Below the pieces are notes generated by a model. The model was not told where the DNA came from and ran no database searches. It saw only the letters and a list, made by a program, of their open reading frames with translations. This document shows, one piece after another, positions 19,324 through 53,050 of a stretch of DNA of 64,000 bases. Source of the DNA: a virus; the IMG/VR virus record IMGVR_UViG_3300012036_000004, positions 1-64,000 of that record, one strand, 5' to 3'. Position 1 is the stretch's first letter; each line of letters opens with the position of its first letter. The translations under genes were made by a program, and so were the position numbers.

Positions 19324-20226
19324 TCAGAGCTCGAGACGGGTGACGGAGCGCGTGTTACCGATGCCGATTCCCGGAGCAGCGTAGCTCCAGAACTCGATCA
19401 TGTCGGCGCGCTGCTCGATGAAGAGCGTCGCGTCCTGGAGAAGATAGAAGTTCCCCAGGTAGTTTTGCGGTCCGAAGATGTACGCGTGATTGCTCGGGAT
19501 GATGTCGTTCTTGATGGTCGTGATGACCGGGAATCCCCAGAGGTGATTCTCCGACTCCACGCCTTCGTCGTAGTGACGCGAGGCGACCACGTCACCGATC
19601 GACGTCGCTGGCAACTTCAGCGCATCGTAGTAGAGCTCTTTGGTCATCAGAATCTTGCCGATCGGAATCTTACGCGACACCAGGTTCTTGAACGCGTCGG
19701 CGAAGTTGGCAGCTGTGAGGCCGCCTGCCGGCGAGAGCACCTGACCGGGGTTGGCGGTCAGAATGGCATCGAGCGTGTCGACGAATCGAAGGTCTTCCTG
19801 ATCGGCCATGTCCTTGACGGAGTTGTCCGAGAGGATCTTGCGGATGTCGTTCTCGTACGTCATCAGCTCGAACTTCGACTTCTTGAATCGCTGCGATTCC
19901 GTCTTGCCGAAGTACACGGAGTACTTGCGACCGCGGAACCAGGTGCGGCGACCGGTGCCTTTGAACGGCACGAACGTCGCGACCGAGTCAGGCTCGAGCT
20001 CGACGATCTTGCGAGGCATGTCCGTGTTCACCGAACGGTCGAGCTGGTCGTCGCCGATCAGCTGAGGCTCGATGATTTCACGGGTGAACGAAGCCTGTCG
20101 CAACTTGCTGCGGATGAAGGCAGTACCTTCGGTCTCTGCAGCGGTCTTGTCGCGCTCGACTTTCTTGACGAATCGGGTGTTGATGAGTGACGCGCTCGTG
20201 CGCGAAGTCTCTGTATTGTAAGACAT
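19324..20226 (-). CDS. Major capsid protein (HK97 fold)
   Basis: 300 aa; FIRSKLRQASFTREII; E-loop region; KDMADQED..F spine helix; C-terminal G.GIGN; strong terminator downstream. Confidence 0.8.
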   Translation of the reverse strand: MSYNTETSRTSASLINTRFVKKVERDKTAAETEGTAFIRSKLRQASFTREIIEPQLIGDDQLDRSVNTDMPRKIVELEPDSVATFVPFKGTGRRTWFRGRKYSVYFGKTESQRFKKSKFELMTYENDIRKILSDNSVKDMADQEDLRFVDTLDAILTANPGQVLSPAGGLTAANFADAFKNLVSRKIPIGKILMTKELYYDALKLPATSIGDVVASRHYDEGVESENHLWGFPVITTIKNDIIPSNHAYIFGPQNYLGNFYLLQDATLFIEQRADMIEFWSYAAPGIGIGNTRSVTRLEL

Positions 20227-33328: not shown

Positions 33329-36300
33329 TTACCGCTTCCAGAACGGTGACGCAACAGCGCTACCGTTCTGGGAAGATTGCTGCGTCTTCATTCGATGCAG
33401 CTCTCGTGCGGGGTAGTGGCCGGACCGCACAGAGAAGTCTTGTTTCATTTGCGTTGGCAGACCGGGTCGCTGCTGTTGCTGTGCGCGAGCCTGCTCTGCG
33501 GCGAACTGCTGCTGCTGCCACATCTGACGCAATTGAGGAGAGTGCTGCTCCCACTCCGCTCTTGCCGTACCCAATGCGTCTTCTGCAAGGTTAAGTCGGG
33601 CGAGGTACGGATGGCTCTGCATCGAACCCCATACGGCGTCGGCACTCCGATCTCCGTACTGCGCAGCCTGACCCCACGCGTTGGGGTTCGTGCGCATCTG
33701 CTGCGGCGAGGGTCGGGCCGCCATTCGCTGTCCACCGGGAGGCTGACCTTGTGTTGGAGGCTGACCTTGTGTTGGAGGCTGACCTTGTGTTGGAGGCTGA
33801 TAGTTCGGGTCGATTTTCCGTCCGATGGCTTTTCCGGCTGCGGTGAACGGTGCCGCAAATGCGCCGCCGGAAAGCATCCCGAAGGGCGACCCGATGGCCC
33901 ACCCCAGCGAGTCGCCCAACGTGCCGCCGATATTCTCCAGCTTGGACTGCCCTTCGACGTCAGGGGCGTTGGCGGCTTCATGCACCATGGCCGCCGGCAT
34001 CCCGTACGCCATGCCCTTGTTCAATACGTCCATCGAGACGGGCAGGACCATACCACCGTATCCCGCATCCACGTTGGGGTTTCGCGCATTTCGCCAGGCA
34101 CGCATCACGTCCGGGTCGATCGCCATCTCTCCGTGAAGCAACCCGCCCCGCCCGAAGATGCCGCCCATCTGGGCACGCTGCTTCATTATCTTGAGGGGGT
34201 TCTGCCCGATCGACACGTCGCTGGCGCCGCGGGCAATGCGTCGCCCCAACCCTGGTCGCGCCGCCGCGTACTGCTGCGCCACGTCGGGGGTGAACATCTT
34301 TGCAGCCGCCGGATTGACGTTCTCCAAATCCACCTTGGCTCGAGCGAAGTCGGAGAGCGCTTTTCCGTGTGTCTCTTCGAACGCTTTCAAGCGTTCTCCG
34401 AATGCTTGGGCCGATTCATCCGCGCCTCGTCGCGGTACATTCTCCACTGCCTCGCGAGTGAATTGAGACAAGTTCAGGTGTGGATTGCGGCTCGCCTGCT
34501 GCGCCTCCTGGAGCGCGCCGCCGATGTTCTTGAAGGCCTTCTCATTGGAGTCGAGCGTTCGAACGAATCGCGCACCCTCGTCAGTGAGTTGGTTATTCTG
34601 AATCAGGTTCGCCCGAGACATGAAATCGTCGGGGAGTCGTTTCATACGGCGCGCAGCGTCGAGTGCCGCTGTGTCAATTCCGCCAGCCGTCCAGGGCGCA
34701 TCCGAGATCATGCGTAGGGCCTCGTCACCTTTGGAGGCGACCTGCTCCGCGAACTCATCACCCGACCCGACCAAAATGCGTTTCAAAAGACCAGCTTTGC
34801 TCGCGATCTTTTCCACGGCACCGCCGTCCGCAGCGTATTTCCCTTGTAGCCCCGTGCCGAACGGAGCGCCGATCGCGTAGGCAGGAACAGGACTGGTCGA
34901 CGCAATGTCGGTGGTCGAACCAAACCCTGCGCCTTCTACCAAGGTGCGCTTGAGGTAGCGGTGCGACAGACGAGACATCCAGTCGTCGTTGAGCAGCGGC
35001 GCCTGGATCATGGACTTCATGATAGGCGTCGTCACAGTAGGGAGGTTGGATACACTCACCGAGGCAATGCCGTTGTTCTTGAGCTCAGCTTGTACAGACG
35101 GCGTGATGCGTGTGCCTGTCGAGAAGTGCAGCGTCTGCTCTGCCAGGTAGTGACCCTTCGCTTTGCTCACCGGCACGCTCTTGCCGGCCTTTGACATGCG
35201 CTTCTGGACTTCGGTGTACGGAACGATGTCGCCACGCAGGAACTTGTCGGTCGGGTCTTCCTCGACCCGCACGTGCTTCATGGCGTTTCGAGCCAGTAAC
35301 TCCGTATGGCGACGGTCAATGTCCACGCCTTGGCGGCGGTACAGGTCTGTCAGTTGGTTCGACAGGTACACGCGGCCCGCGCCGATTCCCTTGTGTTTTA
35401 CGACGGCGTTCGGAAGTGCGACGCCGTCAGACAGTGCGTCACCCGCTTCGACGATGTCACCCTGTTTGACGATCGGCTGCAATCGCGGCGGAGTGTAGTA
35501 ATTCTTGCCGGCAACACGGATGTGCCACCCGCCCTGCGGCGCTTTCTTCACCGACTCGACGCGGCCGTCGTGTTCTGTGATAGCCGCCTTGTCTTGGAAC
35601 GATTTCGGGACTTCGGTGAGCGTACGAAACCCCGTGAGACCCGTGAGCTCGGTTGCGCCCTGGCCCTTTCCTTTGGCGAGTCGAACGCCGTGCTTGGCGT
35701 TTAGCGCGAACTGCGTCAACGGTTCGGTCATCGCCTGTGCGCTTCGTGCGCCGACATTCGTTCCGACCTGATGCGGTTTGCCCCACTCGTTGAGTCCCAC
35801 ACACTTCTGGCACACTCCATCATGGGCTTCGCATGCCGTGGGGCTTCGAACCAAAACCTTCGGTTTGTTGGCCTTTTTCAGCTTGTTGACGACGTCAGAT
35901 GTAACGAGGGTGTTCCGGGATACGGGACCCTCATCTCGCGCGAGGTAGCGGTCTTGCACCTGGTCTGTCACGGGAAGAAGAATCCCGCCTCTCGTGCCGC
36001 AGTCAGCTTGCGTCACCACCAGGTCGTCCATGTTGTTCATGACGACTTTGGCGACCATACCCGGCTCGACAACAGCGCCCGAGGAAGCGATCGCGTTTCG
36101 ACGTGATTCTACGCCGGTCACCCACGCGTCTGCCGGGTTGACTCCCTGCGAGTACGACTTGGTCACGAGCCACGGTGTCGCCTGGCCCTTGTTCATCGCG
36201 AGGACGGGTGACGCAACAATCTTCATGAGCTGCGCAATGGAGCCTCTGCCGCCTGACTTGGCCATGATGGTCATGTCGGAAGGATGATTCTCCGTGGCGG

Positions 36301-36640
36301 TGACCATCTTGTCCTGCGTCTCGAGCAGGATCTTTCGCTTCTCTTCGTCTGACTTGGCGGCTTTGATGCGACGAAGCGCGTCTTTCATGACAGGGTCGCG
36401 CTGTTTGTAGTCAGGCGCAATGTCATCCAGTCCCACCGAGATCCCTTCCAGGGTCGCAACTTCGTCGCCCAGTGACTTGAGTTTCATCACCGTCTTGACG
36501 TAAGTGTCCGGGTCCGACTTCGCGAGCTCCGTCATCTGCTTCTTGAGGATGCCTTTGGTCACCGGACCGTCCATCCTCATGTCGCCGGGAAGCGTCTCAT
36601 TGAGAAGGAAGTGCCCCAGAGTTTGATTGTCATCAGGCAC
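33329..36640 (-). CDS. RNA polymerase beta' C-terminal subunit fused to a ~490-aa Gly/Ala/Gln-rich domain
   Basis: SGGRGS; bridge-helix region; DCGT; RSPTAC...VCQKC Zn site; trigger loop AQAMTEPLTQ..L..KH; GGAGG RBS before GTG 36640. Confidence 0.9.
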   Translation of the reverse strand: MPDDNQTLGHFLLNETLPGDMRMDGPVTKGILKKQMTELAKSDPDTYVKTVMKLKSLGDEVATLEGISVGLDDIAPDYKQRDPVMKDALRRIKAAKSDEEKRKILLETQDKMVTATENHPSDMTIMAKSGGRGSIAQLMKIVASPVLAMNKGQATPWLVTKSYSQGVNPADAWVTGVESRRNAIASSGAVVEPGMVAKVVMNNMDDLVVTQADCGTRGGILLPVTDQVQDRYLARDEGPVSRNTLVTSDVVNKLKKANKPKVLVRSPTACEAHDGVCQKCVGLNEWGKPHQVGTNVGARSAQAMTEPLTQFALNAKHGVRLAKGKGQGATELTGLTGFRTLTEVPKSFQDKAAITEHDGRVESVKKAPQGGWHIRVAGKNYYTPPRLQPIVKQGDIVEAGDALSDGVALPNAVVKHKGIGAGRVYLSNQLTDLYRRQGVDIDRRHTELLARNAMKHVRVEEDPTDKFLRGDIVPYTEVQKRMSKAGKSVPVSKAKGHYLAEQTLHFSTGTRITPSVQAELKNNGIASVSVSNLPTVTTPIMKSMIQAPLLNDDWMSRLSHRYLKRTLVEGAGFGSTTDIASTSPVPAYAIGAPFGTGLQGKYAADGGAVEKIASKAGLLKRILVGSGDEFAEQVASKGDEALRMISDAPWTAGGIDTAALDAARRMKRLPDDFMSRANLIQNNQLTDEGARFVRTLDSNEKAFKNIGGALQEAQQASRNPHLNLSQFTREAVENVPRRGADESAQAFGERLKAFEETHGKALSDFARAKVDLENVNPAAAKMFTPDVAQQYAAARPGLGRRIARGASDVSIGQNPLKIMKQRAQMGGIFGRGGLLHGEMAIDPDVMRAWRNARNPNVDAGYGGMVLPVSMDVLNKGMAYGMPAAMVHEAANAPDVEGQSKLENIGGTLGDSLGWAIGSPFGMLSGGAFAAPFTAAGKAIGRKIDPNYQPPTQGQPPTQGQPPTQGQPPGGQRMAARPSPQQMRTNPNAWGQAAQYGDRSADAVWGSMQSHPYLARLNLAEDALGTARAEWEQHSPQLRQMWQQQQFAAEQARAQQQQRPGLPTQMKQDFSVRSGHYPARELHRMKTQQSSQNGSAVASPFWKR
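33738..33800. repeat. 18-nt tandem repeat x3 (QPPTQG)
   Basis: GGAGGCTGACCTTGTGTT repeated. Confidence 0.9.
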
Positions 36641-37292
36641 CGTACCCTCCAACGCCAGGGTTTCTCAGTTTCTTCGTTACGTTCACTCCGTCCGACAAAG
36701 ACCACGCGGTTCCGCCGGCCGCCAGTGCTTTGCCGGGCGTGCCCCGCGCCACTTCGGATGCCCGGTGACCAACGTTCGACATCATGCGTCGACCCGGAGA
36801 CATGCCTTCAGTCTTCGCCGCGTGTGTTGCAGCTCGCTCTGCTTTGGCTGTTTGAGACTTCACCGCGCTTGCCTGACGTCGGTTGGAGAAGAAGTTTCGA
36901 CTCTTCTTTCCGAAGTTGCTACTCCCTTTTCCGCCAGCTTTCCCAACCCCTTTGATGGCTTTCCCAACCCCTTTGATGACTTTCCCAACCCCTTTGGCGA
37001 AAAATTTCCCGCCCTGAATCAGCGGACTCAGTAACGCGATTTTCTCCATGTCCTCCGGAGTTGGGTGAAGCAGTGCTTGACGGAGCATTGCGGTCTTGAT
37101 GGAGGGGGCACCCATATCGATGCCCAGACGAGACGCGGCGTCCTGTCCGAACAGGGACGTGGGTTCACCCCACGTGAGCGGTTCGAGCCCATACAGGTTA
37201 TCGCCTTTGAGCTCCCGAATACCTTTGGGCTCGGAAGGCTCTTCCGTGATTCCCTCGAGCAGTTCTTTGACTCCGGTGATCTTCTTTTCCAT
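36633..37292 (-). CDS. Protein between the RNAP genes: acidic N-terminus, cationic amphipathic C-terminus
   Basis: TAATG coupling; IKTA and EKIA motifs; 21-nt repeat encoding KGVGK(V/A)I. Confidence 0.7.
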   Translation of the reverse strand: MEKKITGVKELLEGITEEPSEPKGIRELKGDNLYGLEPLTWGEPTSLFGQDAASRLGIDMGAPSIKTAMLRQALLHPTPEDMEKIALLSPLIQGGKFFAKGVGKVIKGVGKAIKGVGKAGGKGSSNFGKKSRNFFSNRRQASAVKSQTAKAERAATHAAKTEGMSPGRRMMSNVGHRASEVARGTPGKALAAGGTAWSLSDGVNVTKKLRNPGVGGYGA

Positions 37293-40200
37293 TAGGTCCT
37301 CTGAATCTTAACGGGGGTGCTCATCTTGATTTCGCCGCGTTTGTACGCTGCCATCGCATCGGCTTTCGAGTCAAAGACGCGCGTCTCGCCTTGCGGACCC
37401 TCTCGAGTTGCCATGTACGTCCCGATCAGCGCTTCGTGTGCCGGGAAGACCATGAGGTCATCCTTGGATACATCGCCGAGAAGAAGGTTGGACAGCGTCA
37501 TGCTCTTCGACTCAGATACGGCGGCGTCTGCCACAGGGACATGCAGCTGCACGGTGTCGCCATCATAGTCGGCGTTCATGCCTTGTTCTGCAAATGGATT
37601 CAGTCGAACGGTCTTGCCCGGGATGAGTTTCGGATACGCAGAAATGAGCCCAAATCGGTGCAGCGTGGGGGCTCGGTTCATGACGACAGGCCGTTTCTTG
37701 ACTTCGGTACCCAGGATGCGTCGAGCCGCCGGGTCTCGGTTCTTCACTTTCTTGCGGGCGTCTGCTGCGCGGTGCCCTGACTGGACCAGTCCTTTGACGA
37801 GGAAAGGTTCGTACATCTTCCAGGCCATCTCCTCAGGCATACCGACCTCGTCCATGTTCAGGTTGAGATCCGGAGCAATGGTTGCGCGGCCCGACAGGTC
37901 CTGACGTCGCTTCATCATGCGCGACTGGAAGTACCCATGCTTCGGCGAGCCGGTGCCTGTGATTTGCTGAAGATGCCCCTTCGTTCCTCGCCCCTGGTTC
38001 TGCGGAGACACGGGGTCATTGAAGCCGAACAAAGCACCGACCGAGTCGTGCAGGTGTTTGCGTCGCTTCTTCCGATCGTCATCGGTGTCGAGCTCCTCGG
38101 GCGTCTCGGTAATGGACTCGTTTGCCAGCATCACGTCTCGGTACAGGTAGTTTGCATCCGAGATGAGCATGGTCCCGTCGCTCGTGGGCATGATGGGGCG
38201 AATCGTCGGAGGCACGACCGGTACCTTCGACAGCACATAGGCGTCGCCCGCGGTCAGGTCTTCTTTGAGCAGAGCGTCGATGTACTTGATGCGCTTGACG
38301 GCATCGTCGAGCGTCGCGCCTCGAGCCGTTTTAATCTCCTGCTTCAGCTTCCGGCGTTCGCTCTTCAGGTCGATCTCGTTGAGCTTCTTTTTGACCTCAG
38401 ACGCCCCCTTGTCATCTCGGAATGCGCGGAATTCATTCTTCGTCATCCCCAGCATCCGACGGGCCGGGTCTTCGAACACCGGATTCACCACCGGCTCCGC
38501 CAGGTTAATCTTGGAGTACTTCGTGCCGGTCAGTCCGCCTGTCAGCGCGGGGTCAAACAGCCCTCCCTCCTCAGGCTGGAGCTGTGTAACGCCCTGGCGT
38601 TTCCGCGGCGTCACGAGCAGTGCGTTCTTCACTTCGGTCTTTGCCATCGAGTCGATGTCGCGGTCGGTGAGCGGGGCCAGGCTGTGTCGTGAACCCTTCT
38701 TGTTCACTTTGATGCCTGCTCCGTGCAGCATGTGATTGAACTTCTCGTAAGCGAAGTTCTCGCTCGGCATCGGAGCTGGAAGACCCAGTTGAATGCGGCG
38801 CCAGTACTCGTCGTTACGCTGTCCTTTAACGACCGCAGCCTCCTGCAGCACGTTTCGAGCGTTGTGCGCAAGGAGTGCGTTGAACTCCATCTTGCCCAGG
38901 GACTTCGCCCCCTCGTCACCGCCTTTGGTGGGCTGCATGTTGGAGTCGTACCCGGGGCCAATACCGCGAGCAGCGAAGTTGGTGTCGGTCGACTTGAACA
39001 GTTTGTAGGTGTACTGCCTCCCCACGTGGATGCCTGGGATTTTCTTTCCCGACATCGGGTCGTACACGGTTTCCTTGTCCTTGAGTCCGTTGTCCTTGAG
39101 TAGCTTCTTCGCCCACTTCACGTTGTCGTGGTCGGCGAACTGATCGATGATGACTGGCTTGCCTGTCTTTTCAGCGACCTTGCCGACCGCCGTCTCGAGA
39201 ATCTGACTGGGGTTGATTCGAGTGATCACGCCTGCAGACGTCATCAACACGTCGATCGGCTTGCCGGCCTCGTCTTTCACCATCTGGTCGTCCGGGACGA
39301 TCTTAGACACCACGCCTTTGTTCCCGTAACGCCCGGCCATTTTGTCCCCTACACCCATTGGCGCGTCCATCTTCACCGTGACGGTGATTTGTTTGTTGGT
39401 GACTGCGACGTCAATCACGGTGCCGGGATGGTCGTGATCCCACGTAATGGCCGCGTCCCGGTAAGGCTTCACCAGTGACTTGTGCAAGTTCCCCAGCATC
39501 TGCTGCTGGGCAGATGCCTGATCTTTTCGGATCGCAGAGATGAGGAGCTCACCGTGGTCCACCTGCTGGCCCTTCTTGATGATTCCCTTGGAGTCGAGCC
39601 GTTCGTACTCCGGACGCGAGTAGCGCGAGCCGAAGTAGGCCCGGTGCTTGTCCTTGTCTGTGGAGACCCCCTGGTCCAGCGACAGCGTCTCTTTGTACAT
39701 GTGCCTCGAAGTCAGCTTCTTGGACGCAGACTCCGAGATCACGACAGCGTCGTTGGAGTTGTAACCGTAGTAGGGCATGTATCCCACCGACAGATTCTTC
39801 CCCAGAGCAAGCGTTCCGTTGCGAGTGAAGTTGGTCTCCGCCAGGGCCTGCCCCTGTTGGACTCGCTGGCCTTTCTTCACGTTGACGTCGTCGTGCATGT
39901 ACGTCTTGGACATCAAGGGGAAGTCCGTAGCGTAAGGCACCTTGACGAGATCGTCTGTCTTGGCCGCGGCGGTCTTCATCCATGCAGAAAGGGATTTTTC
40001 CTGAGGCCCTTCAGCGCTTCGCTTGGAGCGATCAGGTCGGATGTAGATGTAGTCTTTGTCGATCTTCTCCACAGTGCCAGCGGTCGGCGACATGGGAACG
40101 ATGAGCTCACCCATCTGTTTCTCGACAGTCTTCTCCGGGTCCCACGACCGAATTTGTACATAAGGCTCGTCTCGATCAATGAGCGGCAACGCCTGGGTGT

Positions 40201-41746
40201 GCATCTTGGACCCCATGATGTTTCGGTTGCCCTGCGCGCTGTTCAAAAACGGCACGAGATTCGTCGTCGGGCTGTACATCCGGGAGGGGTCGGGGACTTC
40301 ATAGTCCACCTCCGAAGAGTTTACTGAGTAAACCTGTCCGTTCTTCAGTGCGTCGATCTTCTTGCGCCCGCCCAGCTTCTGGTTCGGGAACGCGACGGTT
40401 TTCTCCATCAGCTTCGACGCCTTCACGTACTCGAGTTTCCCGTTCTTGGTGTTGCGCATCTGGGCGTACATGTTTCCTTCGTCGTCACGCCGAGCGAACA
40501 TCGAAGTTCGCACATCGATGCCTGCTTTCCCTGATTCGGGCGTTCGCACCGGGTCAAGGATACCCAGATGGGAGTGATGCACGTCTCGAGCTTCGTCTGG
40601 TACGGCCAAAGTCGACGAAATACCCCCCTCACCTAGCGAGGTGACTTTAACGGCATGATCAACGATCTCCATCGGATTTATCTGCATCGGCGTCGCAGTG
40701 AGTGCGGACGTCGTCACAAAAGAGTGGAGGGATTTCGTGAAAGGAGACGACGGCATGATGTCCGAGACCTTCGGATTGTCCCCGGCCTTCCGAAGACGCA
40801 TCTTGACCTTTCGAGAGATGTCTGGCGCTGCGTCTTTCTCAACTCGTTCCTTCAAAAACGACTCAACCGTGTGGATGGTCTTGAACGCAGTCGAGTCTCG
40901 ATCGTCCTGCTCCTCTTTGTCGTTGTAGACGTTCAGAATCTTCTGACTGGCTCGCAGAAGCGTCTTGGGTTCGACCTTAGAGAACTTCTGACCCAGCGTG
41001 ATGTTGGTGACCTCCGGATCGAGCTGCGTACGGTCGTACGAGTCCCGGATCGCCTCCAACATCTCCTGGTGATTCGGGTTGTCCTCCTGCAGAAAGCTTG
41101 GAATGAGCTTTTTGTAGAGCTTTCGGACGTACCGAGCTTCCTTGCCGGCGGCGTACTTCTTGTTGAGTTGAAGTACGTCCTTGCCCCAATACTTGGTGAT
41201 CTCTGTATCCCGCACCCCCAGGGCTGACAGGGCCCCGTAGAGCGGAATCTTGCTTGAGCCGTACTCCATGAAGATGAGACCGCGGTCTGGGTCGAGCGAC
41301 AACCGGAAGTTACGTCCCTTGGCGAGGTTGAATGCGGACTCGAGCTCTCCGTTGCCGCGCTGCCGTGTGTAGACCCCGGGCTTGATTCGAACCTGGTTGG
41401 AGACGGTGTAGTCATTGCCCTTCATGATGAAGGTGTGCCGCTCTGTGAAGTACGGGATCTGCGCCAGAGTTCGCTTGCTCGTATCCAGTATCTTACCCGT
41501 CTTCTTGTCACGAACAACGACCGTACCCTTCATCGGCTCGACCAAGGTCTTGCCCTCCAGGATGGCTTTCTTCTGCTCGGAGGGAGAGAACACTTTGTTC
41601 GTCGGTTCGACGTCCTGAATCTCCACAATGTGCTTATCTGTCTCGACCCGAAAGTCCTGAATCCCCTTCCTGACGTGGTCTCGAATCATCTCACGCCGTT
41701 CTTCAGCGCGCCCCATCAGGGGATAGAGTGTTGGGTTTTTCGCCAC
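37292..41746 (-). CDS. RNA polymerase beta - beta' N-terminal fusion (catalytic subunit)
   Basis: Beta motifs: RTPESG, MGSKMHTQA, GYNSNDA, GDKMAGRYGNKGV, RINPSQ, GKMEFNAL. Beta' motifs: PVVPP.IRP, D.SGRATI, NRAPTLHR, NADYDGD. Confidence 0.95.
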   Translation of the reverse strand: MAKNPTLYPLMGRAEERREMIRDHVRKGIQDFRVETDKHIVEIQDVEPTNKVFSPSEQKKAILEGKTLVEPMKGTVVVRDKKTGKILDTSKRTLAQIPYFTERHTFIMKGNDYTVSNQVRIKPGVYTRQRGNGELESAFNLAKGRNFRLSLDPDRGLIFMEYGSSKIPLYGALSALGVRDTEITKYWGKDVLQLNKKYAAGKEARYVRKLYKKLIPSFLQEDNPNHQEMLEAIRDSYDRTQLDPEVTNITLGQKFSKVEPKTLLRASQKILNVYNDKEEQDDRDSTAFKTIHTVESFLKERVEKDAAPDISRKVKMRLRKAGDNPKVSDIMPSSPFTKSLHSFVTTSALTATPMQINPMEIVDHAVKVTSLGEGGISSTLAVPDEARDVHHSHLGILDPVRTPESGKAGIDVRTSMFARRDDEGNMYAQMRNTKNGKLEYVKASKLMEKTVAFPNQKLGGRKKIDALKNGQVYSVNSSEVDYEVPDPSRMYSPTTNLVPFLNSAQGNRNIMGSKMHTQALPLIDRDEPYVQIRSWDPEKTVEKQMGELIVPMSPTAGTVEKIDKDYIYIRPDRSKRSAEGPQEKSLSAWMKTAAAKTDDLVKVPYATDFPLMSKTYMHDDVNVKKGQRVQQGQALAETNFTRNGTLALGKNLSVGYMPYYGYNSNDAVVISESASKKLTSRHMYKETLSLDQGVSTDKDKHRAYFGSRYSRPEYERLDSKGIIKKGQQVDHGELLISAIRKDQASAQQQMLGNLHKSLVKPYRDAAITWDHDHPGTVIDVAVTNKQITVTVKMDAPMGVGDKMAGRYGNKGVVSKIVPDDQMVKDEAGKPIDVLMTSAGVITRINPSQILETAVGKVAEKTGKPVIIDQFADHDNVKWAKKLLKDNGLKDKETVYDPMSGKKIPGIHVGRQYTYKLFKSTDTNFAARGIGPGYDSNMQPTKGGDEGAKSLGKMEFNALLAHNARNVLQEAAVVKGQRNDEYWRRIQLGLPAPMPSENFAYEKFNHMLHGAGIKVNKKGSRHSLAPLTDRDIDSMAKTEVKNALLVTPRKRQGVTQLQPEEGGLFDPALTGGLTGTKYSKINLAEPVVNPVFEDPARRMLGMTKNEFRAFRDDKGASEVKKKLNEIDLKSERRKLKQEIKTARGATLDDAVKRIKYIDALLKEDLTAGDAYVLSKVPVVPPTIRPIMPTSDGTMLISDANYLYRDVMLANESITETPEELDTDDDRKKRRKHLHDSVGALFGFNDPVSPQNQGRGTKGHLQQITGTGSPKHGYFQSRMMKRRQDLSGRATIAPDLNLNMDEVGMPEEMAWKMYEPFLVKGLVQSGHRAADARKKVKNRDPAARRILGTEVKKRPVVMNRAPTLHRFGLISAYPKLIPGKTVRLNPFAEQGMNADYDGDTVQLHVPVADAAVSESKSMTLSNLLLGDVSKDDLMVFPAHEALIGTYMATREGPQGETRVFDSKADAMAAYKRGEIKMSTPVKIQRT

Positions 41747-42307: not shown

Positions 42308-43348
42308 ATGTCAGTCGCAATCAACGTACTCTCATCGCTCTTCAGCAGTTCCACGCTCGCCTCGGCGGCGTGGAGTGGATTAAGTACACCGGTTCAGGCG
42401 GCCATCGCCTTGGCCGGAATCGGCAGCGCTGGGTGCACCGCCCACTCCGTGGGCAAAAGAACCATCCTTTCGGTAGCGAACTACCGAAAGAACGGTGCAA
42501 AGGTGTTCCTCCCGTGTGGAAACACCGGGAGGGTCAGCAAAGTCGGCTTCGATTTCATCGAGGCCATCCGAGACCATGACGACACCATCGTCACGGTCCG
42601 CGGAGACGACCTCGAGAATCTCCGAGACGCCGAATTCAAGCGTGATCCCGAGGCCGGAGCAAAGGCCCGGGAGCGCGTACAGGCACTCAGGTCGAAGACG
42701 ATCGGAGAACGCCGAAACGAGCGTCTGGGTCAAGACGATCGTCAGCTGTCGGACGTCAAGTACGACAACATCCAGCTCACCGGCGAGCTGGGGGCTGCGA
42801 AGCAGGTGATGAAAGACCAGCGCGCCAAGTTCGAGGCGCGTTTCGAGAATTTCCGCGAGGAAATCTTCGGGCAGATGGACGCTGTGACTCCTGAGGACGA
42901 CGAAGAGGTCGTTCTCGACCTCGGAGACGAGGAATCGGACGCTAAGCCCTCAAACGAGGGCGACGCCTCCTCACCCGAGGAAGGTGCTGACGAGTCCCCC
43001 ACCCAGGAGGACGAAGTCAACGAGAGCACTCCGGCTCTCAAGTCCGACGCCATCAAGGCGAAGGTCAAAGCGGCTGCCGCCGTCGCTGAATCTGCTGACG
43101 AGGCCGTAGAGGCCGCGGAAGCGGAGTTGGATGAAGCACTCGAGGAAGCGGTCGCGACTGCGGCCGCGTCGGATGAGTCGGACGAGTCGGAAGACTCGGA
43201 CGAGTCCAGCGAGTCCACGGAGGACTCGGAGAACAAGGCCAATGCGGCCGCGTCGGATGAGTCGAAAGGCTCAGAAGACAGCGACCCCGCTTCGGCGGAG
43301 GTCGCACCGTCGGGAAAGCAACAGGCGAAGGGGGAGGCGACGGCGTAG
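42308..43348 (+). CDS. Putative early protein: hydrophobic N-terminus, coiled coil, acidic tail
   Basis: AAAGG RBS after promoter motif; D/E/S-rich C-terminal half. Confidence 0.75.
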   Translation: MSVAINVLSSLFSSSTLASAAWSGLSTPVQAAIALAGIGSAGCTAHSVGKRTILSVANYRKNGAKVFLPCGNTGRVSKVGFDFIEAIRDHDDTIVTVRGDDLENLRDAEFKRDPEAGAKARERVQALRSKTIGERRNERLGQDDRQLSDVKYDNIQLTGELGAAKQVMKDQRAKFEARFENFREEIFGQMDAVTPEDDEEVVLDLGDEESDAKPSNEGDASSPEEGADESPTQEDEVNESTPALKSDAIKAKVKAAAAVAESADEAVEAAEAELDEALEEAVATAAASDESDESEDSDESSESTEDSENKANAAASDESKGSEDSDPASAEVAPSGKQQAKGEATA

Positions 43349-43812
43349 CGTCGAAACCCTCTCCAAAGCCGACCCCGGCCAAGGCGAGACCCTCGCGAAA
43401 GCGGGGGAATCGCTGGGAGATCCCCAGAGATGTCCGAAAGGGCATCGCACTCGCAAACGCGTATGCGGATGCGAAAGGGGACGCCGCCGCAGCGGTGGCT
43501 GGGCGTGAGTACATGATGTACTACGCCCAGCGCCTGGTCAAAACGAAGCGTAACCTCGCGGTTGCGCAGCGTTTCGACGCCCACAACCCAGGTTGGACGT
43601 GGCCTGCCAATTATGGCAAGGCTACGGGGCGTACCAAGCTCCTGGAATTCCTCTACGGGGAACTGGCGGACGTCATGCAAGACGTTCAGAAGTTTCTCGA
43701 CGAGTATGCGAATCGAGTCGCGCCACTTCCTGCACGGCGCTACCGACGCTACTCGGATAACGAGTCGCGCGTCACCCTCGGTGAAGGCGCAAAGAAGTCG
43801 TCCTTAAAATAA
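43312..43812 (+). CDS. -1 frame extension of the 42308 gene (includes track ORF 43495-43812)
   Basis: Frame open from 43261 to 43812; slippery G GGA AAG at 43312-43318; no clear RBS of its own. Confidence 0.6.
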   Translation, partial: GKATGEGGGDGVASKPSPKPTPAKARPSRKRGNRWEIPRDVRKGIALANAYADAKGDAAAAVAGREYMMYYAQRLVKTKRNLAVAQRFDAHNPGWTWPANYGKATGRTKLLEFLYGELADVMQDVQKFLDEYANRVAPLPARRYRRYSDNESRVTLGEGAKKSSLK

Positions 43813-43813: not shown

Positions 43814-43875
43814 CCCTGTCCCTGCGTGGGACAGGGGCAGGCACGACGCCCCCGACTCTGGGGGCGTCTTTTTTT
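43814..43875 (+). terminator. Double hairpin/terminator between convergent genes
   Basis: CCCTGTCCC/GGGACAGGG, then GACGCCCCC/GGGGGCGTC followed by T7. Confidence 0.8.
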
Positions 43876-44294: not shown

Positions 44295-46016
44295 TTAGCT
44301 CACCATCTCCTGCGCTGCGTTTCGTTCCTGCAGCTGAATCTCTTCGAGTCGTTGAATGACGACGGAGTACATGACGTAGTCTTCGGCCTGTAGCGAAGAG
44401 AGCACCGAACGGCGCTGTCCTTCGTCGATCTGGCTGAGCTCCATCGCCATCTGATCGGCCTCGGCGATGACGGCCTGCTGATCGTACTCGAGACCTGTCG
44501 ATCCTGCAGAAGCCTCGGCCTGCGCCTGGTCTGCGAGCGTCGACTGCAGCTCTTCCATCTTTCGGCTGAGCTTCGCCTGTCGTCGCGTCTGCTCGAGCAT
44601 CTCCTGTTCTTTTTGCTCGATCTCGTCGTCGTAATCGAGGTCGAGAATCTCCGATACGGTGCGTCGCGACACCAGGTCGTACTGCGCGTCCGCCTGCATG
44701 ATGAGAGACTTCTGCTGAATATCGTCGATGAACTTGAAGTTCGTGATATCCGCCGAAACTTTCGCCCATCCGAGGTAGTCTGCAATCGAGTCGCAGATCC
44801 ACTGTAGCAGGTCTCTGAGGTCAGCTGAGTGCGACAACAGCTGATTCTCCAGCATCCGTAATGTGACCGAACTTCCGGTAAAAGAGAGTCCCCCATATAG
44901 GAACTCCCGAGGCACGCCCAGACCGGCGATGATGTTGTTCTCGACTTCCTGCACCTCTCCGAGCGTCAAGAGCGTGCGGCCCTGTCCGCCCATCTGCGTG
45001 ACGCCCAGCGCAACCGGGGCGAACATGATATGGAGCGGGTCTTTTCGCCACTGCTTGATGTTCTGCTTGGTCTCGTCAATCCACTGCGCAAAGGCCAGTG
45101 TTTTGACGGGGTCGTTACTGCTCCCCGTCTGGGCGGGGTGAAGTACACGGAACGGCGTGAGGTGATCGAGTGCAATCGCTTCGTTCGACCTCCGCATGAC
45201 CTCCGCGTAGTAGAACTGCTTCATCACCGAGATCACTGATGGATAGCCCAGTGCTCCTCCAAGCCCCGCCGGTACGTCGCCTTTGAGGTGAAAGATTTTC
45301 GTGGGGTCGAAATGGAAAACCTGGTCGTCGTCCGCGGCTTCCAGGAACGCTTTCGGCGTCCCGTCGATCATGTGCCGATCTCCGTCCTTGATGGCGCTTC
45401 TCAGTTCCGCCGGGAGATCATAGTAATACTCAGTGTTGCCTGTGATGGGGTTGTGTTCGACGTCGATGTGTTTGGGGTCCCAGCAGATGACGTTCATGCG
45501 CTTGGGGTCATACACCTTGACGTCGCGCACCTCGCTCAGACGCGTCGTCGACGACGCCTTGCACTGCATGCAGTTGTACTTGAACGTTCGCTTCTTGTAG
45601 TCGAACTTGTAGTCTTTGATGCGCCGAATGTCCCACATCATCCCGCAGCCTTTGCACGGGACGATGCGTTTGAACGGGAAGTACAGAGAGTAAAAAGCGT
45701 TCCCGTACAGGGTGCGGTTCTTGGACGCACCCTTCAGCACCACCTTCGCCCGAAGAGTCTCGAGCACAATCTCGGAGTACTTCGTTCGGAGCGACTCGGA
45801 CTCCGTCTTGAACGTGATGTCCGTGATGACGTAGTCAGCGAGTTTTTGAAGAGCGATGAAAATGTGGGGGGAGTTGTAGTAAATATACTCCGTCCACCGG
45901 TACATATCCTTCAACTTCCGAGGGACGAAGCCCGTCAGAAAATTGAACATCGGGTTCGGATGCGCATTCGACTGCCCGAGAATGTCGAAAGGCTCTCTGC
46001 TGATATCACCACTCAT
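44295..46016 (-). CDS. Portal protein
   Basis: 573 aa; TLYGNAF; CxxC...CxxC insert; IFHLK; IIAGLGVPREFLYGG typical of portals. Confidence 0.8.
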   Translation of the reverse strand: MSGDISREPFDILGQSNAHPNPMFNFLTGFVPRKLKDMYRWTEYIYYNSPHIFIALQKLADYVITDITFKTESESLRTKYSEIVLETLRAKVVLKGASKNRTLYGNAFYSLYFPFKRIVPCKGCGMMWDIRRIKDYKFDYKKRTFKYNCMQCKASSTTRLSEVRDVKVYDPKRMNVICWDPKHIDVEHNPITGNTEYYYDLPAELRSAIKDGDRHMIDGTPKAFLEAADDDQVFHFDPTKIFHLKGDVPAGLGGALGYPSVISVMKQFYYAEVMRRSNEAIALDHLTPFRVLHPAQTGSSNDPVKTLAFAQWIDETKQNIKQWRKDPLHIMFAPVALGVTQMGGQGRTLLTLGEVQEVENNIIAGLGVPREFLYGGLSFTGSSVTLRMLENQLLSHSADLRDLLQWICDSIADYLGWAKVSADITNFKFIDDIQQKSLIMQADAQYDLVSRRTVSEILDLDYDDEIEQKEQEMLEQTRRQAKLSRKMEELQSTLADQAQAEASAGSTGLEYDQQAVIAEADQMAMELSQIDEGQRRSVLSSLQAEDYVMYSVVIQRLEEIQLQERNAAQEMVS

Positions 46017-46044
46017 CCGAACTCCACATCCTCAAAAGGCACCT

Positions 46045-48210
46045 ATGCAACCTATACGACTGCAACTGATTCGTCACCATAATACACCGGTGTTCGCCAC
46101 AAAAGACGATCACTCAGATTTGAATCGAGTGTATGGCTACACTCGAGTTCGCAAGATGGGCCTCGCCCTCTTCCCCGCATTTCTCCCATTCTCCGAGCAC
46201 GTGGTCAACGACCTCAACATCGTGTACGGCGAGGAGAACCTGGACTGGGCACTGGCTGCAAAGAACCACCTTGCCGAGTTAGAGAACGAAAAGCGTCGAC
46301 AGAACTCTGAGAGCTTACCGGCTGGCTTCGAGTTCGTCACGGAGCCGTTCGGCCACCAGCGAGAAGGTGTGATACGCGCCATATACGAGCCGCGCACCGC
46401 GTTGTATTTCGACTGCGGTCTCGGCAAGACCAAAACGGCTATCGATCTCATCCGTGCGTTGAAGTGCAAGATCTCCGACATGCGTGCCCTGGTTATCTGT
46501 CCGCCGCACCTTGCGCCGAACTGGGAAGAAGAGTTCGCTACGCATGATGATGGCGAACTTCGCGTCCGAACGCTACTCGACCACAACTCCAAAACGCTTG
46601 GGTCAAAGAAGCGGCGCCATGCCTATCATGGGACGCGTAAGCACGAGCCGAGTTGGCACCCAGACGAGCCGTGGGGTGAGCTCTTTCCCGATGTCGTATA
46701 CGAACCCAGCCCTGACCGCGCCTTCCGTGTCGCTGGTGGCGATAACGAACTCGACTACCTGAAAGCGACGCAACGCGACGACTCCGACGAGCGCGGACGA
46801 GCTCGAGCTCGAATGCGTCGTCACGCCAAGAAGAGGGGCATCGACTTGCCTGCTCCTGCAAAACGAGTCAATCCGGCTCCCGAGCCTGTCAAGAACTTCG
46901 ATGTGTTGGTGTTGCCATACTCAGTGCTCAAGAAGGATCTCAATCACATCCTGGACGCCTATCCCTACAACGTCCTGATCTGTGATGAATCGCACATGCT
47001 CCGCTCCCACAAATCGAACCGGTCGAAGGCTGTCCTGAAGTTGGGCGCCAAAGCGAGTCATCGCTACTTGTTGTCCGGGACCCCGGCACTCGGAACGCCG
47101 ATGCATCTCTACGTGCAGCTTCGTTTGCTCGGCGGATTCCTGACCGGCACCTGGTGGGAGTTCTACAAGCGCTACAATGTAGCCATCCGACGCCAGCACC
47201 GAGGCGTTGAGCATGACGAGGTCGTGGCCTACAAGAACCTCAACGTGCTCAATGAGATTGTCACCGAAGTGGCGCTTCGTAAGAAAGCCGATGACTGCCT
47301 CGACCTTCCGCCGGTCCGCACGTTGACCTATCCAATCTATCCCAGCGACGAGACCAAGGAGATGTACAACGAACTCGTCCGAACACACTCTGCAGCGATT
47401 GGTGGTCGACAGATCCGTGTGGCGCACGCTGCAGATCGATTGACGAAGCTACTCCAGGTGTTGTCCGGGTTCATCATCGACTCGCAGAAGGACTACGAGC
47501 TCTGCGATGGCGGCGACGACCGTCCGCCCTGCCCTCATCTGATGGACTGCGTTCGCAACAAAATCAACCCCTACACGCCCAAGTGTGCAATCGTGCAGGA
47601 GGACCCGCCCAAGCTTACCGAGTTGTTGGACGCGCAGGACAGGTGCGACCAGAGCATGGAGCTCTTTGAGTCCATCCTGTCCTCGGACGACAACAAGGTC
47701 ATCGTGTGGGCCACCTTCCAGGCGGAGCTCAACATGTTGGACGCAGCTTTCACGAAGGAGGGTTGGGACTTTGTCCGCGTCGACGGGAACACCAAAGACA
47801 AGCAGGCGGCCAAGAAGCGCTTCAACACGGACCCGAACTGTCGCATCTACCTGAGCCAGATCCGCACAGGTGTCGGCATCACGCTGAACGCGGCCAACTA
47901 CACCGTGTTCTATAACGCCACTTTCGACCTGGGTGATTACATTCAGGCGCAGAAGCGAAACGACCGGATCGGACAGGAGCGTCCAGTGACGGTTTACCAG
48001 CTGGTTGTTCCTGGTAGTGTGAACGAGTATATTTTCCGTTCCTTGGAGCGAAAAGAAGATATTTCTGCTGCCCTCACCGACCACGTTCAGTGTATACTGT
48101 GCGACCGCAATAAGGAGTGCGACGCTGCCGGAATCCAGCCGTTCGACAAAGACTGCATCTACTCGTCGAAGGAAGGCCGACTGCGAATGCGCCCTGCGCT
48201 GCTTAAATAG
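46045..48210 (+). CDS. SNF2/DEAD-like (SF2) helicase
   Basis: DCGLGKT; DESH; LSGTP; GVGITL; QAQKRNDRIGQ. Confidence 0.9.
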   Translation: MQPIRLQLIRHHNTPVFATKDDHSDLNRVYGYTRVRKMGLALFPAFLPFSEHVVNDLNIVYGEENLDWALAAKNHLAELENEKRRQNSESLPAGFEFVTEPFGHQREGVIRAIYEPRTALYFDCGLGKTKTAIDLIRALKCKISDMRALVICPPHLAPNWEEEFATHDDGELRVRTLLDHNSKTLGSKKRRHAYHGTRKHEPSWHPDEPWGELFPDVVYEPSPDRAFRVAGGDNELDYLKATQRDDSDERGRARARMRRHAKKRGIDLPAPAKRVNPAPEPVKNFDVLVLPYSVLKKDLNHILDAYPYNVLICDESHMLRSHKSNRSKAVLKLGAKASHRYLLSGTPALGTPMHLYVQLRLLGGFLTGTWWEFYKRYNVAIRRQHRGVEHDEVVAYKNLNVLNEIVTEVALRKKADDCLDLPPVRTLTYPIYPSDETKEMYNELVRTHSAAIGGRQIRVAHAADRLTKLLQVLSGFIIDSQKDYELCDGGDDRPPCPHLMDCVRNKINPYTPKCAIVQEDPPKLTELLDAQDRCDQSMELFESILSSDDNKVIVWATFQAELNMLDAAFTKEGWDFVRVDGNTKDKQAAKKRFNTDPNCRIYLSQIRTGVGITLNAANYTVFYNATFDLGDYIQAQKRNDRIGQERPVTVYQLVVPGSVNEYIFRSLERKEDISAALTDHVQCILCDRNKECDAAGIQPFDKDCIYSSKEGRLRMRPALLK

Positions 48211-48218
48211 GAGATCCG

Positions 48219-48965
48219 ATGCCCCCTACGCTACACGCAACCCTATCGTTCGATGACACTGCTGTTGAGGAGCTCGTGCAAGCGCACGTCGAGTCTCAGG
48301 GGTACTTCGTCGAGGACATTCACCCCGATGAGAGCTCTCTGGGGTATCAGGTGTCCGTACGGCCTATGACGCAGGAAGAGCTTCTGCTGCACGATCTGCC
48401 GACTGAGTCCGTCGAAGACCGTCTCCAGATTAAGATCGATTCTCTGGTAGAAGAGACCCAGCGCGCATTCGGTAGCTTCGCTTCTCACATCGAGAAGCAG
48501 GCCCGCGACACAGAGATTGCGCTGGAGTCACGACTCGACGACCTGCGTGCGTTGAGTAGCAGCGCTCAGCAGACCATGCTCGAGATTCAGAGCCTGGCTG
48601 AGAAGCAACGAGCCACCCCGGTCTTCGTAGAAACACCTACCGAGACTGTCGTGACACGTTCCGAAGCCGTTACGGAGACACGCCTCCCTGCCCCGAAACC
48701 TGAACCTACGATTGACGCCGAGCCTCTCGGTGGCCCTGTCAGTGTCATGAGCACTGGCGCGCCATCTGGTTCTTACGAGACGCTCAGCTTTGCCGACGCC
48801 GTTGCGGCGCTCCAAGAAGATGCGTCTGCATCGAACCCGAACGACCACACACGGCAACGCCGATTCACCCAGCTCCACGAGGAGCTGGCCCAAGAAGCCG
48901 CGGTGGCTCGAGACCCGATTCCGGGCGAGTCCAGCGCATTTCCCTCTGACCTTGTGACCCAATAA
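48219..48965 (+). CDS. Coiled-coil hypothetical protein
   Basis: AGGAG RBS. Confidence 0.7.
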   Translation: MPPTLHATLSFDDTAVEELVQAHVESQGYFVEDIHPDESSLGYQVSVRPMTQEELLLHDLPTESVEDRLQIKIDSLVEETQRAFGSFASHIEKQARDTEIALESRLDDLRALSSSAQQTMLEIQSLAEKQRATPVFVETPTETVVTRSEAVTETRLPAPKPEPTIDAEPLGGPVSVMSTGAPSGSYETLSFADAVAALQEDASASNPNDHTRQRRFTQLHEELAQEAAVARDPIPGESSAFPSDLVTQ

Positions 48966-48970
48966 GGCCT

Positions 48971-49906
48971 ATGACAGACGACATCACAGACGAAGAAGAC
49001 GAAGACACATCCCGATCACGTGGACGCAGCCGCAACCACGATTTCGGGGAGTACGACAAAGTGTACGACCTGCCCAGTGGATACCTCTCGGTGTCCCAGG
49101 TGGGGCTGTACCAGAAGTGCGGAGAGCGGTACCGGCGTCGATACGTCGAAAACCAACGAACGCCGCCTTCCTCGAACCTGGGCCACGGTCGGTTGATCCA
49201 CAAGGCCGTCGAGACCCTGTTGCAGTACAAGATCGACAACGAGCAACGCGTGCCTCCCGCAGACCTGGGGAACGACGCAATCAGTGATCACTTCCAAGAG
49301 ATGTCACAGGACATCGAGATCTGGGACCCGAAGGTCCCCGACATCGAGACCTTCGAAGAGACGGCTCGTGAGTTGGTGGGGCTCTACGAAGAGTCGCGCC
49401 TGCCCGAAGTACTGCCGCGCGCCGTTGAGCTCAAGCTCAAGCGCGTTCTCCGTGGGCGCATCCCGTTTGTCGGGTACACTGACCTCATCGAGATGTCCCT
49501 GATGGATGTCGACTTCCAGCCTATGAAGTCACTCGATGATTTGAAGTCGACAGACAGCGTTCGCGACCTCAAAGCGACCGGTCGAAAGTACGGCGCGCAG
49601 CGCGTCAAGAATTCCCTGCAGCTTTCGATGTACGCCGAGATCACCGGGCTCGAGAACGTTGGGTACGACCTGCTCGTTCAGAAGAAAAAGTCCGAGTTCG
49701 CCAAGCAGGACGCCTTCCGCTCCAAGCGGGAGAAAGAACACGCCGTAGATGTGGTAGAAGATGTCGCCAAGTCCATCTCCGCTGGCGTGTTCATGCGTGC
49801 CGATCCGGAGAGCTGGATGTGCACCGAGAAATGGTGCCCGTACTTTAGCGAGTGCCGAGGCGCCCAGAAGAGCATTCACACTGTCCCTGATGGAGAGAGC
49901 GTTTGA
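48971..49906 (+). CDS. PD-(D/E)XK RecB/Cas4-like exonuclease
   Basis: LSVSQ...C; G..IH; GYTDL; DLKAT; QL..Y; C-terminal C..WC.Y..C. Confidence 0.85.
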   Translation: MTDDITDEEDEDTSRSRGRSRNHDFGEYDKVYDLPSGYLSVSQVGLYQKCGERYRRRYVENQRTPPSSNLGHGRLIHKAVETLLQYKIDNEQRVPPADLGNDAISDHFQEMSQDIEIWDPKVPDIETFEETARELVGLYEESRLPEVLPRAVELKLKRVLRGRIPFVGYTDLIEMSLMDVDFQPMKSLDDLKSTDSVRDLKATGRKYGAQRVKNSLQLSMYAEITGLENVGYDLLVQKKKSEFAKQDAFRSKREKEHAVDVVEDVAKSISAGVFMRADPESWMCTEKWCPYFSECRGAQKSIHTVPDGESV

Positions 49907-50118
49907 TGGAGAAATTCGGAGTAGAAACCCATCGCCCAGGAGAAAAGAATGCCGGAGATAGTCGAACCTGCCCCTGGTGCGGACGTTCTGTCAGCGTTGA
50001 CGGAGCTGTTCGACGATGCCCTGTACATGGAAGTGAGCCTTTCGAAGTACAGGGAGAAGCTGCGCCCGCTGACCGTTCCGACGTCAAGCTGGCTGGGGAT
50101 GATAGCCCCGACGAATAA
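49903..50118 (+). CDS. Small Zn-ribbon protein
   Basis: CPWC...CPVH; GGAG RBS. Confidence 0.6.
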   Translation: MMEKFGVETHRPGEKNAGDSRTCPWCGRSVSVDGAVRRCPVHGSEPFEVQGEAAPADRSDVKLAGDDSPDE

Positions 50119-50608
50119 CTCGGATTACCCGAGCCCCGCGCGCGGCTTTGTGCCGCTCGCCCGGGTTCGGAGCTGGGAGCCTGCGGAAGGGGAGAAAACA
50201 GGACGACTGCATAACCTGCTCTTTCTGCAGAACAGCAAGATACTGTACCGAGCAGCACACACCAGCCATGCCGCTGGAAACGGCGACGAACCCTACCTCA
50301 TATTCGTCACCCCAAGAGCCCTCCCTGAGGGTTGCCCGATTCAAACCGACACGAGCGACGCTTGTGACAACTGCGCCTTGTGGGCTCATTGCGCCACAGG
50401 GCGTCTTCCCTTCGCGGACCTACGCTACGTCAAGATCAGCGGCTTTCACTGCATGAAAGTATGCAAGGTCGACGACGAGTGGTTCGATGCAGGGCAATCT
50501 GCGAAGCGCCTGAGTTACCGAACCCTAGACGCCACTCCTCAGCAGGGGGTGCCTCTCACGGGAGTCGACCTCCGCGCACTACCTCAATTTGAACCATATT
50601 GTTATTGA
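50099..50608 (+). CDS. Cys-rich hypothetical protein
   Basis: Within track ORF 49949-50608; CDNC...HC motif; start uncertain. Confidence 0.55.
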   Translation: MIAPTNNSDYPSPARGFVPLARVRSWEPAEGEKTGRLHNLLFLQNSKILYRAAHTSHAAGNGDEPYLIFVTPRALPEGCPIQTDTSDACDNCALWAHCATGRLPFADLRYVKISGFHCMKVCKVDDEWFDAGQSAKRLSYRTLDATPQQGVPLTGVDLRALPQFEPYCY

Positions 50609-50623
50609 ACGGAGAGATCACGA

Positions 50624-50779
50624 ATGACACCGCGGCTTCGCTTCGCCTTACTCGTCTACTGGTATACTCTTCAGTACGTGAAAGAGGTTGAGCAAGCCCC
50701 CACCCAGGACCGGGGCTCAAACATCGTGAGCCTGGATGAATACAGACGGAAAAAACATGCCACATTTACCCATATCTAA
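50624..50779 (+). CDS. 51-aa protein containing NIVSLDEYRRKK (not in ORF track)
   Basis: GGAGAG RBS; fills the gap before ParB. Confidence 0.55.
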   Translation: MTPRLRFALLVYWYTLQYVKEVEQAPTQDRGSNIVSLDEYRRKKHATFTHI

Positions 50780-51959: not shown

Positions 51960-52102
51960 TGTTGACGAGTGGGGAGGTCTATCGCTACAACGATAGACCT
52001 CCTGCCTGGCAGCAGAGGAAAACAAACTAGACAGTCCACCCGGAGCGTATTCCTCACTCCGAATGTATACGTGTGTCTGTCGAACACCCTTGGAGAAAGA
52101 TA

Positions 52103-52972: not shown

Positions 52973-52993
52973 TCTCGATTCGCCCTCTCAATC

Positions 52994-53027
52994 GGGAGGG
53001 GTCGCTATGCGGCCTCTCCCTTTTTTT
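52994..53027 (+). terminator. Intrinsic terminator
   Basis: GGGAGGGGTCGC-TAT-GCGGCCTCTCCC then T7. Confidence 0.85.
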
Positions 53028-53050
53028 GCCTCTTTCCCATCGGACGTATC

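Follow-up and report, generated by a model that had tools for sequence, protein, structure and literature searches.

The first 64 kb of the 101,735-bp IMG/VR viral contig IMGVR_UViG_3300012036_000004 (hereafter the window; CheckV completeness of the contig ~57%) carry a locus that encodes the catalytic core of a two-chain multisubunit RNA polymerase, in which all catalytic signatures are intact as judged by motifs and family profiles. The first chain (P0001) joins beta to the N-terminal part of beta' (beta'N) and ends just past the catalytic double-psi barrel. The second chain (P0002) contributes the bridge helix, the trigger loop, a second Zn site and the clamp's C-terminal portion (beta'C), the polymerase totaling ~2090 amino acids (aa). 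We consider it probable that this enzyme is a phage-specific core of bacterial type, made of two chains, which works with a sigma-70 factor and without alpha or omega, and which is packaged in the virion and injected.

The original prediction, made from the sequence of the window, placed both double-psi barrels in one chain of 1484 aa. Both barrel motifs, GDKMAGRYGNKG and NADYDGD, were located in P0001 (table 1), with the Lys pair of beta and the DxDGD triad of beta', and the Tyr of the second motif is conserved in at least 90% of the family of fused polymerases described below. Pfam matches to Rpb2_2, Rpb2_3 and Rpb2_6 lie at residues 141–942 of P0001 and matches to Rpb1_1 (partial) and Rpb1_2 at residues 1130–1417, with E-values of 1.5e-50 for Rpb2_6 and 3.8e-26 for Rpb1_2. 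According to the family hidden Markov model (HMM), the beta portion includes the flap-tip region and is complete except for the Escherichia coli-specific inserts SI1 and SI2. Beta chains from the PDB align with it up to residue 1039, the best match being a bacterial beta (E 1e-69). The beta'N portion corresponds to E. coli beta' residues ~28 to ~551 by the family profile and ~16–553 by VIA-align, and it keeps the lid, clamp helices, rudder and switch 2 when the family HMM is compared with E. coli RpoC.

P0001 does not contain a single cysteine, and therefore the Zn finger of the beta' N-terminus is absent, as had been proposed. GGLFDPALTG stands at residues 1061–1070 and KINLAEP comes 8 residues on, at 1079–1085. 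In the profile mapping, E. coli beta' residues 64–95 (the clamp Zn finger) and roughly 117–176 are without counterpart in P0001, and the family consensus indicates that the deletion of the clamp Zn finger is family-wide. The rifampicin pocket also departs from that of E. coli RpoB, with the changes Q513A, D516M, R529K and S531T in the family HMM. These four positions are sites of known resistance mutations of E. coli, and the polymerase is therefore probably insensitive to rifampicin.

The way in which the two subunits are joined was examined on an AlphaFold2 model of P0001 residues 780–1484, built with 41 family sequences. Its mean predicted local distance difference test score (pLDDT) is 76, and the 10-residue blocks around the junction mostly score 74–95. 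Bacterial beta' chains superpose from their own residues 2–16, at model residue ~238 (P0001 ~1017), to the end of the chain (VIA-align Z 21–23; Thermus thermophilus beta' from residue 4 and E. coli beta' 16–553, on model residues 238–705), and the chain end of the model matches E. coli beta' 553 and Synechococcus gamma 558. Since the superposition begins at residues 2–16 of beta', the model predicts that beta and beta' are joined end to end near residue 1017, essentially without a linker. As sequence similarity at the junction is weak, it is the predicted structure, together with the family profile, that supports this seamless join.

The bridge helix and the trigger loop had been assigned to a second gene, and both were found at residues 173–209 and 298–321 of P0002, respectively. 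The description of this gene as beta'C applies to part of it: Rpb1_4 and Rpb1_5 match at residues 100–463, but the polymerase part ends near residue 606 and the rest is an added domain. The polymerase part corresponds to E. coli beta' residues ~573 to ~1360, without SI3, and the solved structures that match it best are beta' chains of bacteria or the gamma chain of cyanobacteria (E 1e-53 to 1e-50). The four cysteines of the second Zn site are the only ones in P0002.

The added domain, an in-frame extension of ~500 aa, is confined to the window and loci L011 and L012, which form one subclade in our trees. Its core is homologous, by iterated HMM, to a separate protein of 150–440 aa encoded directly downstream of beta'C in 43 other loci. 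The fusion seen in the window links this glycine-zipper neighbor to the polymerase. The consensus of the extension-core family ends in a glycine-zipper hydrophobic segment, found in the window at 33821–33928. Just past this segment, near the end of the extension, there is a tandem QPPTQG repeat (three units) at 33737–33799. Atlas matches to the extension are viral hypothetical proteins only, with a weak glycine-zipper lead, and no match of its family was found in Pfam or the PDB.

Table 1. Coordinates of the polymerase locus and associated genes (window positions unless otherwise stated)
Feature	Position	Strand	Basis
P0001, fused beta::beta'N gene, 1484 aa	37292..41746	-	Open reading frame, Pfam; full-length counterparts in 194 IMG/VR loci
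Beta portion, residues 1 to ~1016	38699..41746	-	Family HMM versus E. coli RpoB; PDB beta chains
Beta double-psi-barrel motif GDKMAGRYGNKG, residues 800–811	39314..39349	-	Motif read, family HMM
Beta' N-terminal portion, residues ~1017–1484	37295..38698	-	VIA-align of AlphaFold2 model, HMM mapping
Site of deleted clamp Zn-binding domain	38492..38566	-	HMM mapping, no Cys in chain
Catalytic motif NADYDGD, residues 1391–1397	37556..37576	-	Motif read, family HMM
P0003, 219-aa gene between the polymerase genes	36633..37292	-	Coupled to both neighbors
Motif W-G-x-P-[ST]-x-L-x2-G-D-A-x2-R...M-G	37104..37178	-	Iterated HMM, alignment
P0002, beta'C gene, 1107 aa by longest frame	33329..36652	-	Open reading frame, Pfam
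Beta' C-terminal portion, residues 1 to ~606	34835..36652	-	Pfam, PDB, family HMM versus E. coli RpoC
Bridge helix, residues 173–209	36026..36136	-	Family HMM
Second Zn site, Cys 218, 274, 281, 284	35795..36007	-	Alignment to E. coli C814, C888, C895, C898
Trigger loop, N-terminal arm, residues 298–321	35690..35761	-	Family HMM
C-terminal extension of beta'C, ~500 aa, Ala/Gly/Gln-rich	33329..34834	-	Comparison with relatives
Core of extension, residues 688–958	33779..34591	-	Iterated HMM, 46 sources
Portal protein, upstream, same strand	44295..46016	-	29% identity to Arash gp204, E 1e-96
Major capsid protein, downstream, same strand	19324..20226	-	42% identity to Arash gp226
Sigma-70-family gene, 358 aa, outside the window	contig 85965–87041 (L009:2965–4041)	-	Pfam Sigma70_r3; Arash gp10 homologue

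The original prediction spoke of a two-gene split, which holds for the number of polymerase chains, but the two genes are not adjacent and the gene of P0003 lies between them. All three genes are on the minus strand and translationally coupled. P0001 starts with a GTG located 4 nt behind AGGAGG, and its stop overlaps the start of P0003 (TAATG). The stop of P0003, in turn, overlaps a GTG at 36640 that comes after GGAGGG, the overlap sequence being GTGCCTGA. Because homology to relatives begins at residue 9–12 of the long frame, this GTG is a likelier start of beta'C than position 36652. The public gene call of the atlas record places the start at Met25 (36580) and, as homology has already begun before that point, it is probably truncated.

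P0003 has no Pfam, PHROG or PDB match, and its family no Pfam or credible PDB match. The motif of P0003 recurs in small acidic proteins whose genes occupy this gap in relatives (29 of 91 sources, E<0.01, iterated HMM). Most of these proteins end with the motif, at their very C-terminus, and their genes directly adjoin one or the other polymerase gene. A basic tail rich in Gly and Lys comes after the motif in the window, L011 and L012. In P0003 this tail, which the shorter motif proteins of most relatives do not have, holds a Gly/Lys repeat of KGVGK-type units at 36924–37010 (minus strand).

The window polymerase is not a lone oddity but, on sequence comparison, a clear member of an Arash-like fused-polymerase family found in hundreds of related phages and already in GenBank, where it is labelled only "beta" and "beta prime". 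According to tblastn, Salmonella phage Arash carries the same fused chain (36% identity at 98% coverage), as do the Vibrio phages D69, D148 and D181 (35% identity), the gene being interrupted by a homing endonuclease in the last two. A protein search returned more than 120 clusters at ≥49% identity, nearly all with Rpb2 and Rpb1 domains and on contigs of up to 196 kb, and a scan of IMG/VR found the fused chain in 194 loci, 80 of which were fetched for detail. Almost all of these 80 match from residue ~5 to 1481, a few contigs ending inside the gene. A fused chain of ~1450–1530 aa was taken as characteristic of Arash-like phages, and that of the window is within this range. Wherever the beta'C gene was complete (61 of 61 loci), it lay downstream on the same strand, encoded 587–631 aa (median 600) and was never adjacent to the fused gene, the gap being 477–5716 nt, compared with ~640 nt in the window. 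The conservation of the fusion in the IMG/VR loci, the protein clusters, Arash and D69 argues for selection. A megablast of the locus against phage records gave no match, and a literature search, which did not cover subscription journals, turned up no description of the fusion, of the split or of the lost Zn finger.

Several members of this family, or sequences close to it, show peculiarities of their own. The fused gene of many relatives (P0009, P0012, P0044, P0065, P0098 and others) bears inserts, among them acetyltransferase domains, PF14528- or PF18823-bearing inserts and a homing endonuclease, and such chains reach ~2130 aa. In L099, an 883-kb contig of a Vicinamibacterales metagenome-assembled genome (MAG), a shorter single open reading frame at 8001–11276 matches the beta as well as the beta' part (26% identity over query residues 356–1478). 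It takes its own long branch beside bacteria in the beta tree and could represent a further polymerase-like fusion, carried by a bacterial chromosome. L097 and L098 are very divergent fused homologues (33–35% identity) whose contigs were binned with MAGs of Thermoanaerobaculaceae and Patescibacteria, and the phage contigs L094 (170 kb) and L095 (131 kb) were binned into Gemmatimonadaceae and Acidimicrobiaceae MAGs. The binning of these four contigs is a weak host hint at best.

The original prediction found no alpha or sigma gene. This is true of the 64-kb window, in which neither is recognizable, but the remainder of the contig carries a sigma-70-family gene (table 1). Its product has a NUDIX hydrolase domain at the N-terminus, after which comes Sigma70 region 3, and the profile of its family matches SigA, RpoS, SigB and SigF at ~1e-11 over regions 2–4. 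The combination with NUDIX occurs in just one other cluster (P0127), most relatives being ~235 aa long without NUDIX. This gp10-type sigma is present in Arash and D69, and at least six of its relatives are apparently on contigs that also carry the fused polymerase gene. Arash and D69 share a second sigma, gp196, of which no homologue was found on the contig of the window. Two open reading frames in the window were considered as sigma candidates and rejected: 42308–43348 has no Pfam match and no likeness to Arash gp196, and 50736–51959, with only a weak Sigma70_r4 match, is a ParB-type helix-turn-helix protein.

The proposal of a separate phage polymerase lineage agrees with trees of the beta (658 columns) and beta'N (377 columns) regions, inferred with IQ-TREE (LG+C20, quick search). 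The 18 fused sequences sampled are monophyletic in both (Shimodaira–Hasegawa-like approximate likelihood ratio test [SH-aLRT] 100), on a long branch outside 14–16 bacteria of at least 10 phyla and also outside five other phage polymerases, those of Vibrio phages 1.031.O and Va2, Rhizobium phage TM30, YerA41 and Carin-5. As the trees are unrooted and were built without archaea, phiKZ and AR9, what they demonstrate is that the family is separate and not how old it is. The lineage may also be called streamlined, as had been suggested, in that it has neither the Zn finger nor inserts of the E. coli type in its short polymerase.

The closest known system is that of Arash gp206 and gp216 (OQ632216; PMC10585845) together with Vibrio phages D69, D148 and D181, whose fused chain is 35–36% identical to that of the window over 98–99% of its length. 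Arash and D69 likewise have a separate beta'C of ~600 aa, the gp10-type sigma, a portal–polymerase–capsid gene order and a genome of the ~180-kb class, and each complete genome encodes one polymerase set only. The window differs from them in the extension of its beta'C, in the NUDIX domain of its sigma and in the gap between the polymerase genes, occupied by one coupled gene here and by nine there. In the Arash paper the chains appear as "beta" and "beta prime", and neither a fusion nor a split is mentioned (PMC10585845). The mReC phages are likewise described as uncultured tailed phages with bacterial-like, deep-branching beta and beta', for which entries of the supplementary table of that report give separate proteins of ~900–1100 and ~1000–1400 aa (PMC7481178). 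Judged by those entries, membership of the window phage in the mReC group was rejected on architecture, the pair of its own family measuring 1450–1500 and 600 aa. The divided beta' of cyanobacteria and plastids (gamma plus beta') is also cut shortly past the catalytic barrel, and the structures that best match the first chain include gamma chains (Foldseek TM 0.5; VIA Z 22). The cyanobacterial type of split was nevertheless rejected, since the chain end corresponds to gamma ~552–558 of 617–624, ~60 residues earlier, and gamma is not fused to beta.

The origin of this architecture could be sought elsewhere than in a phage lineage of its own. Misassembly had been recognized from the outset as a danger to the prediction, and yet the open frame finds full-length matches in 194 independent contigs as well as in the cultured Arash and D69 genomes, with its catalytic residues kept, so the chance that we are dealing with an assembly artefact or a decaying gene is negligible. 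A recent capture of host rpoB–rpoC, such as a natural rpoBC fusion that was later truncated, would account for the nearest solved relatives being bacterial beta and beta' rather than chains of the phiKZ/AR9 type. Natural rpoB–rpoC fusions (Helicobacter, Wolbachia) and engineered E. coli beta–beta' fusions do join the C-terminus of beta to the N-terminus of beta', and they keep full-length beta', the Zn finger, alpha and omega. Identity to bacterial chains is only ~24–31%, the family stands outside all sampled phyla in both trees, and its family-wide Tyr in NADYDGD and loss of the Zn finger are absent from bacteria, which makes a recent capture highly unlikely. Membership in the jumbo-phage polymerases of the phiKZ/AR9 type has in its favor that these are also phage-encoded two-barrel enzymes without alpha or omega, with beta' cut after the catalytic barrel and with a virion-delivered form that transcribes early genes (PMC7598289, PMC7824862). 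Those phages, however, have two paralogous sets, virion and non-virion, and do not use sigma (PMC7824862), and their beta is split into two or three chains. In the window beta is a single continuous block fused to beta'N, the contig encodes a sigma-70-family factor, Arash and D69 have one set, and the beta chains of YerA41 and Carin-5 type fall on a different long branch. We therefore regard such membership as extremely unlikely, in keeping with the distinction from phiKZ and AR9 already drawn in the original prediction. The enzyme would resemble a bacterial sigma-dependent polymerase in its working and the phiKZ virion enzyme in its deployment.

The packaging of the enzyme in the virion, also part of the original prediction, is an inference, indirectly supported by mass spectrometry of Arash and by the portal–polymerase–capsid synteny. 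In Arash particles taken from a sucrose gradient, gp206 was the most detected protein (3516 spectra), above the capsid protein, with 1210 spectra for gp216 and 467 for gp10 (PMC10585845). The same data may be read otherwise: the polymerase would be functional and made during infection for middle and late genes, the host polymerase would read early genes, and the Arash spectra would reflect carry-over. The Arash authors themselves raised carry-over, and their preparation, purified by sucrose gradient only, held 116 proteins, metabolic enzymes and ribonucleotide reductase among them (PMC10585845). Against this stand the excess of gp206 spectra over those of the capsid protein and the fact that in Arash, D69 and the window alike the genes lie inside the head cluster, on the late strand. 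A non-virion enzyme also has to be reconciled with the single polymerase set of the complete relatives, with which a host-independent start would need delivery together with the DNA. On these grounds we consider the non-virion alternative unlikely.

Besides the composition of the Arash preparation, other results weigh against a packaged, self-contained two-chain enzyme. At the junction, a pairwise alignment with E. coli failed to reach significance, and searching the PDB with that stretch by itself gave no match. Pfam models, which divergent analogues may escape, detected neither alpha (PF01000) in the contig, Arash or D69 nor omega (PF01192) in Arash or D69. The ~43% of the genome that the contig lacks could encode another polymerase, another sigma or a protein resembling alpha. 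Sigma-70-like promoter sites were no commoner than in shuffles (3 found, 3.6 expected), and neither a repeated intergenic word nor a phage promoter motif was found.

As regards the surroundings, the polymerase genes sit within the late cluster that runs from portal to capsid, in an order common to Arash. Two plus-strand open reading frames without family matches lie between the portal gene and the polymerase operon, and a strong bidirectional terminator-like hairpin closes this island (42308–43812, plus strand, and 43814–43868). Portal and polymerase operon are contiguous, without such an island, in Arash and D69. A plus-strand replication and recombination block at 45943–53818 encodes an SNF2-type helicase, two PD-(D/E)XK nucleases and the ParB-type protein mentioned above, and it is partly syntenic with Arash gp193–gp198.

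If the enzyme is indeed a packaged two-chain core, the covalent link between beta and beta' would stand in for the alpha-dimer assembly platform, and the small sigma-70-family protein encoded on the contig would direct promoter recognition, and the second sigma of the complete relatives (Arash, D69) may switch between gene classes. The three coupled genes would be expressed late, together with the head genes, and the enzyme would be packed into the capsid and injected along with the DNA and the gp10-type sigma. Early genes could then be transcribed without the host polymerase, and newly made copies of the same enzyme would serve later under the direction of another sigma. Candidates for accessory proteins, or for partners in packaging or ejection, are the small motif protein and the glycine-zipper domain fused to the second chain. 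A bolder version, which we offer tentatively and think somewhat unlikely, is that of a minimal self-sufficient sigma-dependent RNA polymerase in which the beta–beta' link replaces the alpha2/omega scaffold, the small acidic protein and the glycine-zipper protein are new polymerase partners by which the enzyme is put into the capsid and brought across the host envelope with the DNA, and the lineage split off before the sampled bacterial phyla diverged.

What is understood so far of the multisubunit polymerases of phages comes from the phiKZ/AR9 type, a sigma-free enzyme in many pieces, and the fused family is built the opposite way. Its chains are fewer than those of any cellular enzyme, it lacks alpha, omega and the clamp Zn finger, and it is still, presumably, paired with a sigma-70-type factor, to which the NUDIX–sigma fusion on the contig of the window adds a functional link. 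Long and conserved, the fused gene can also serve to mark out a widespread clade of ~180-kb phages. The family thus offers a natural test of the role of the alpha platform in assembly, of the Zn finger in initiation, and of how an enzyme of ~230 kDa would be packed into a capsid and injected, and its cultured member Arash, which grows on Salmonella, makes these questions testable.

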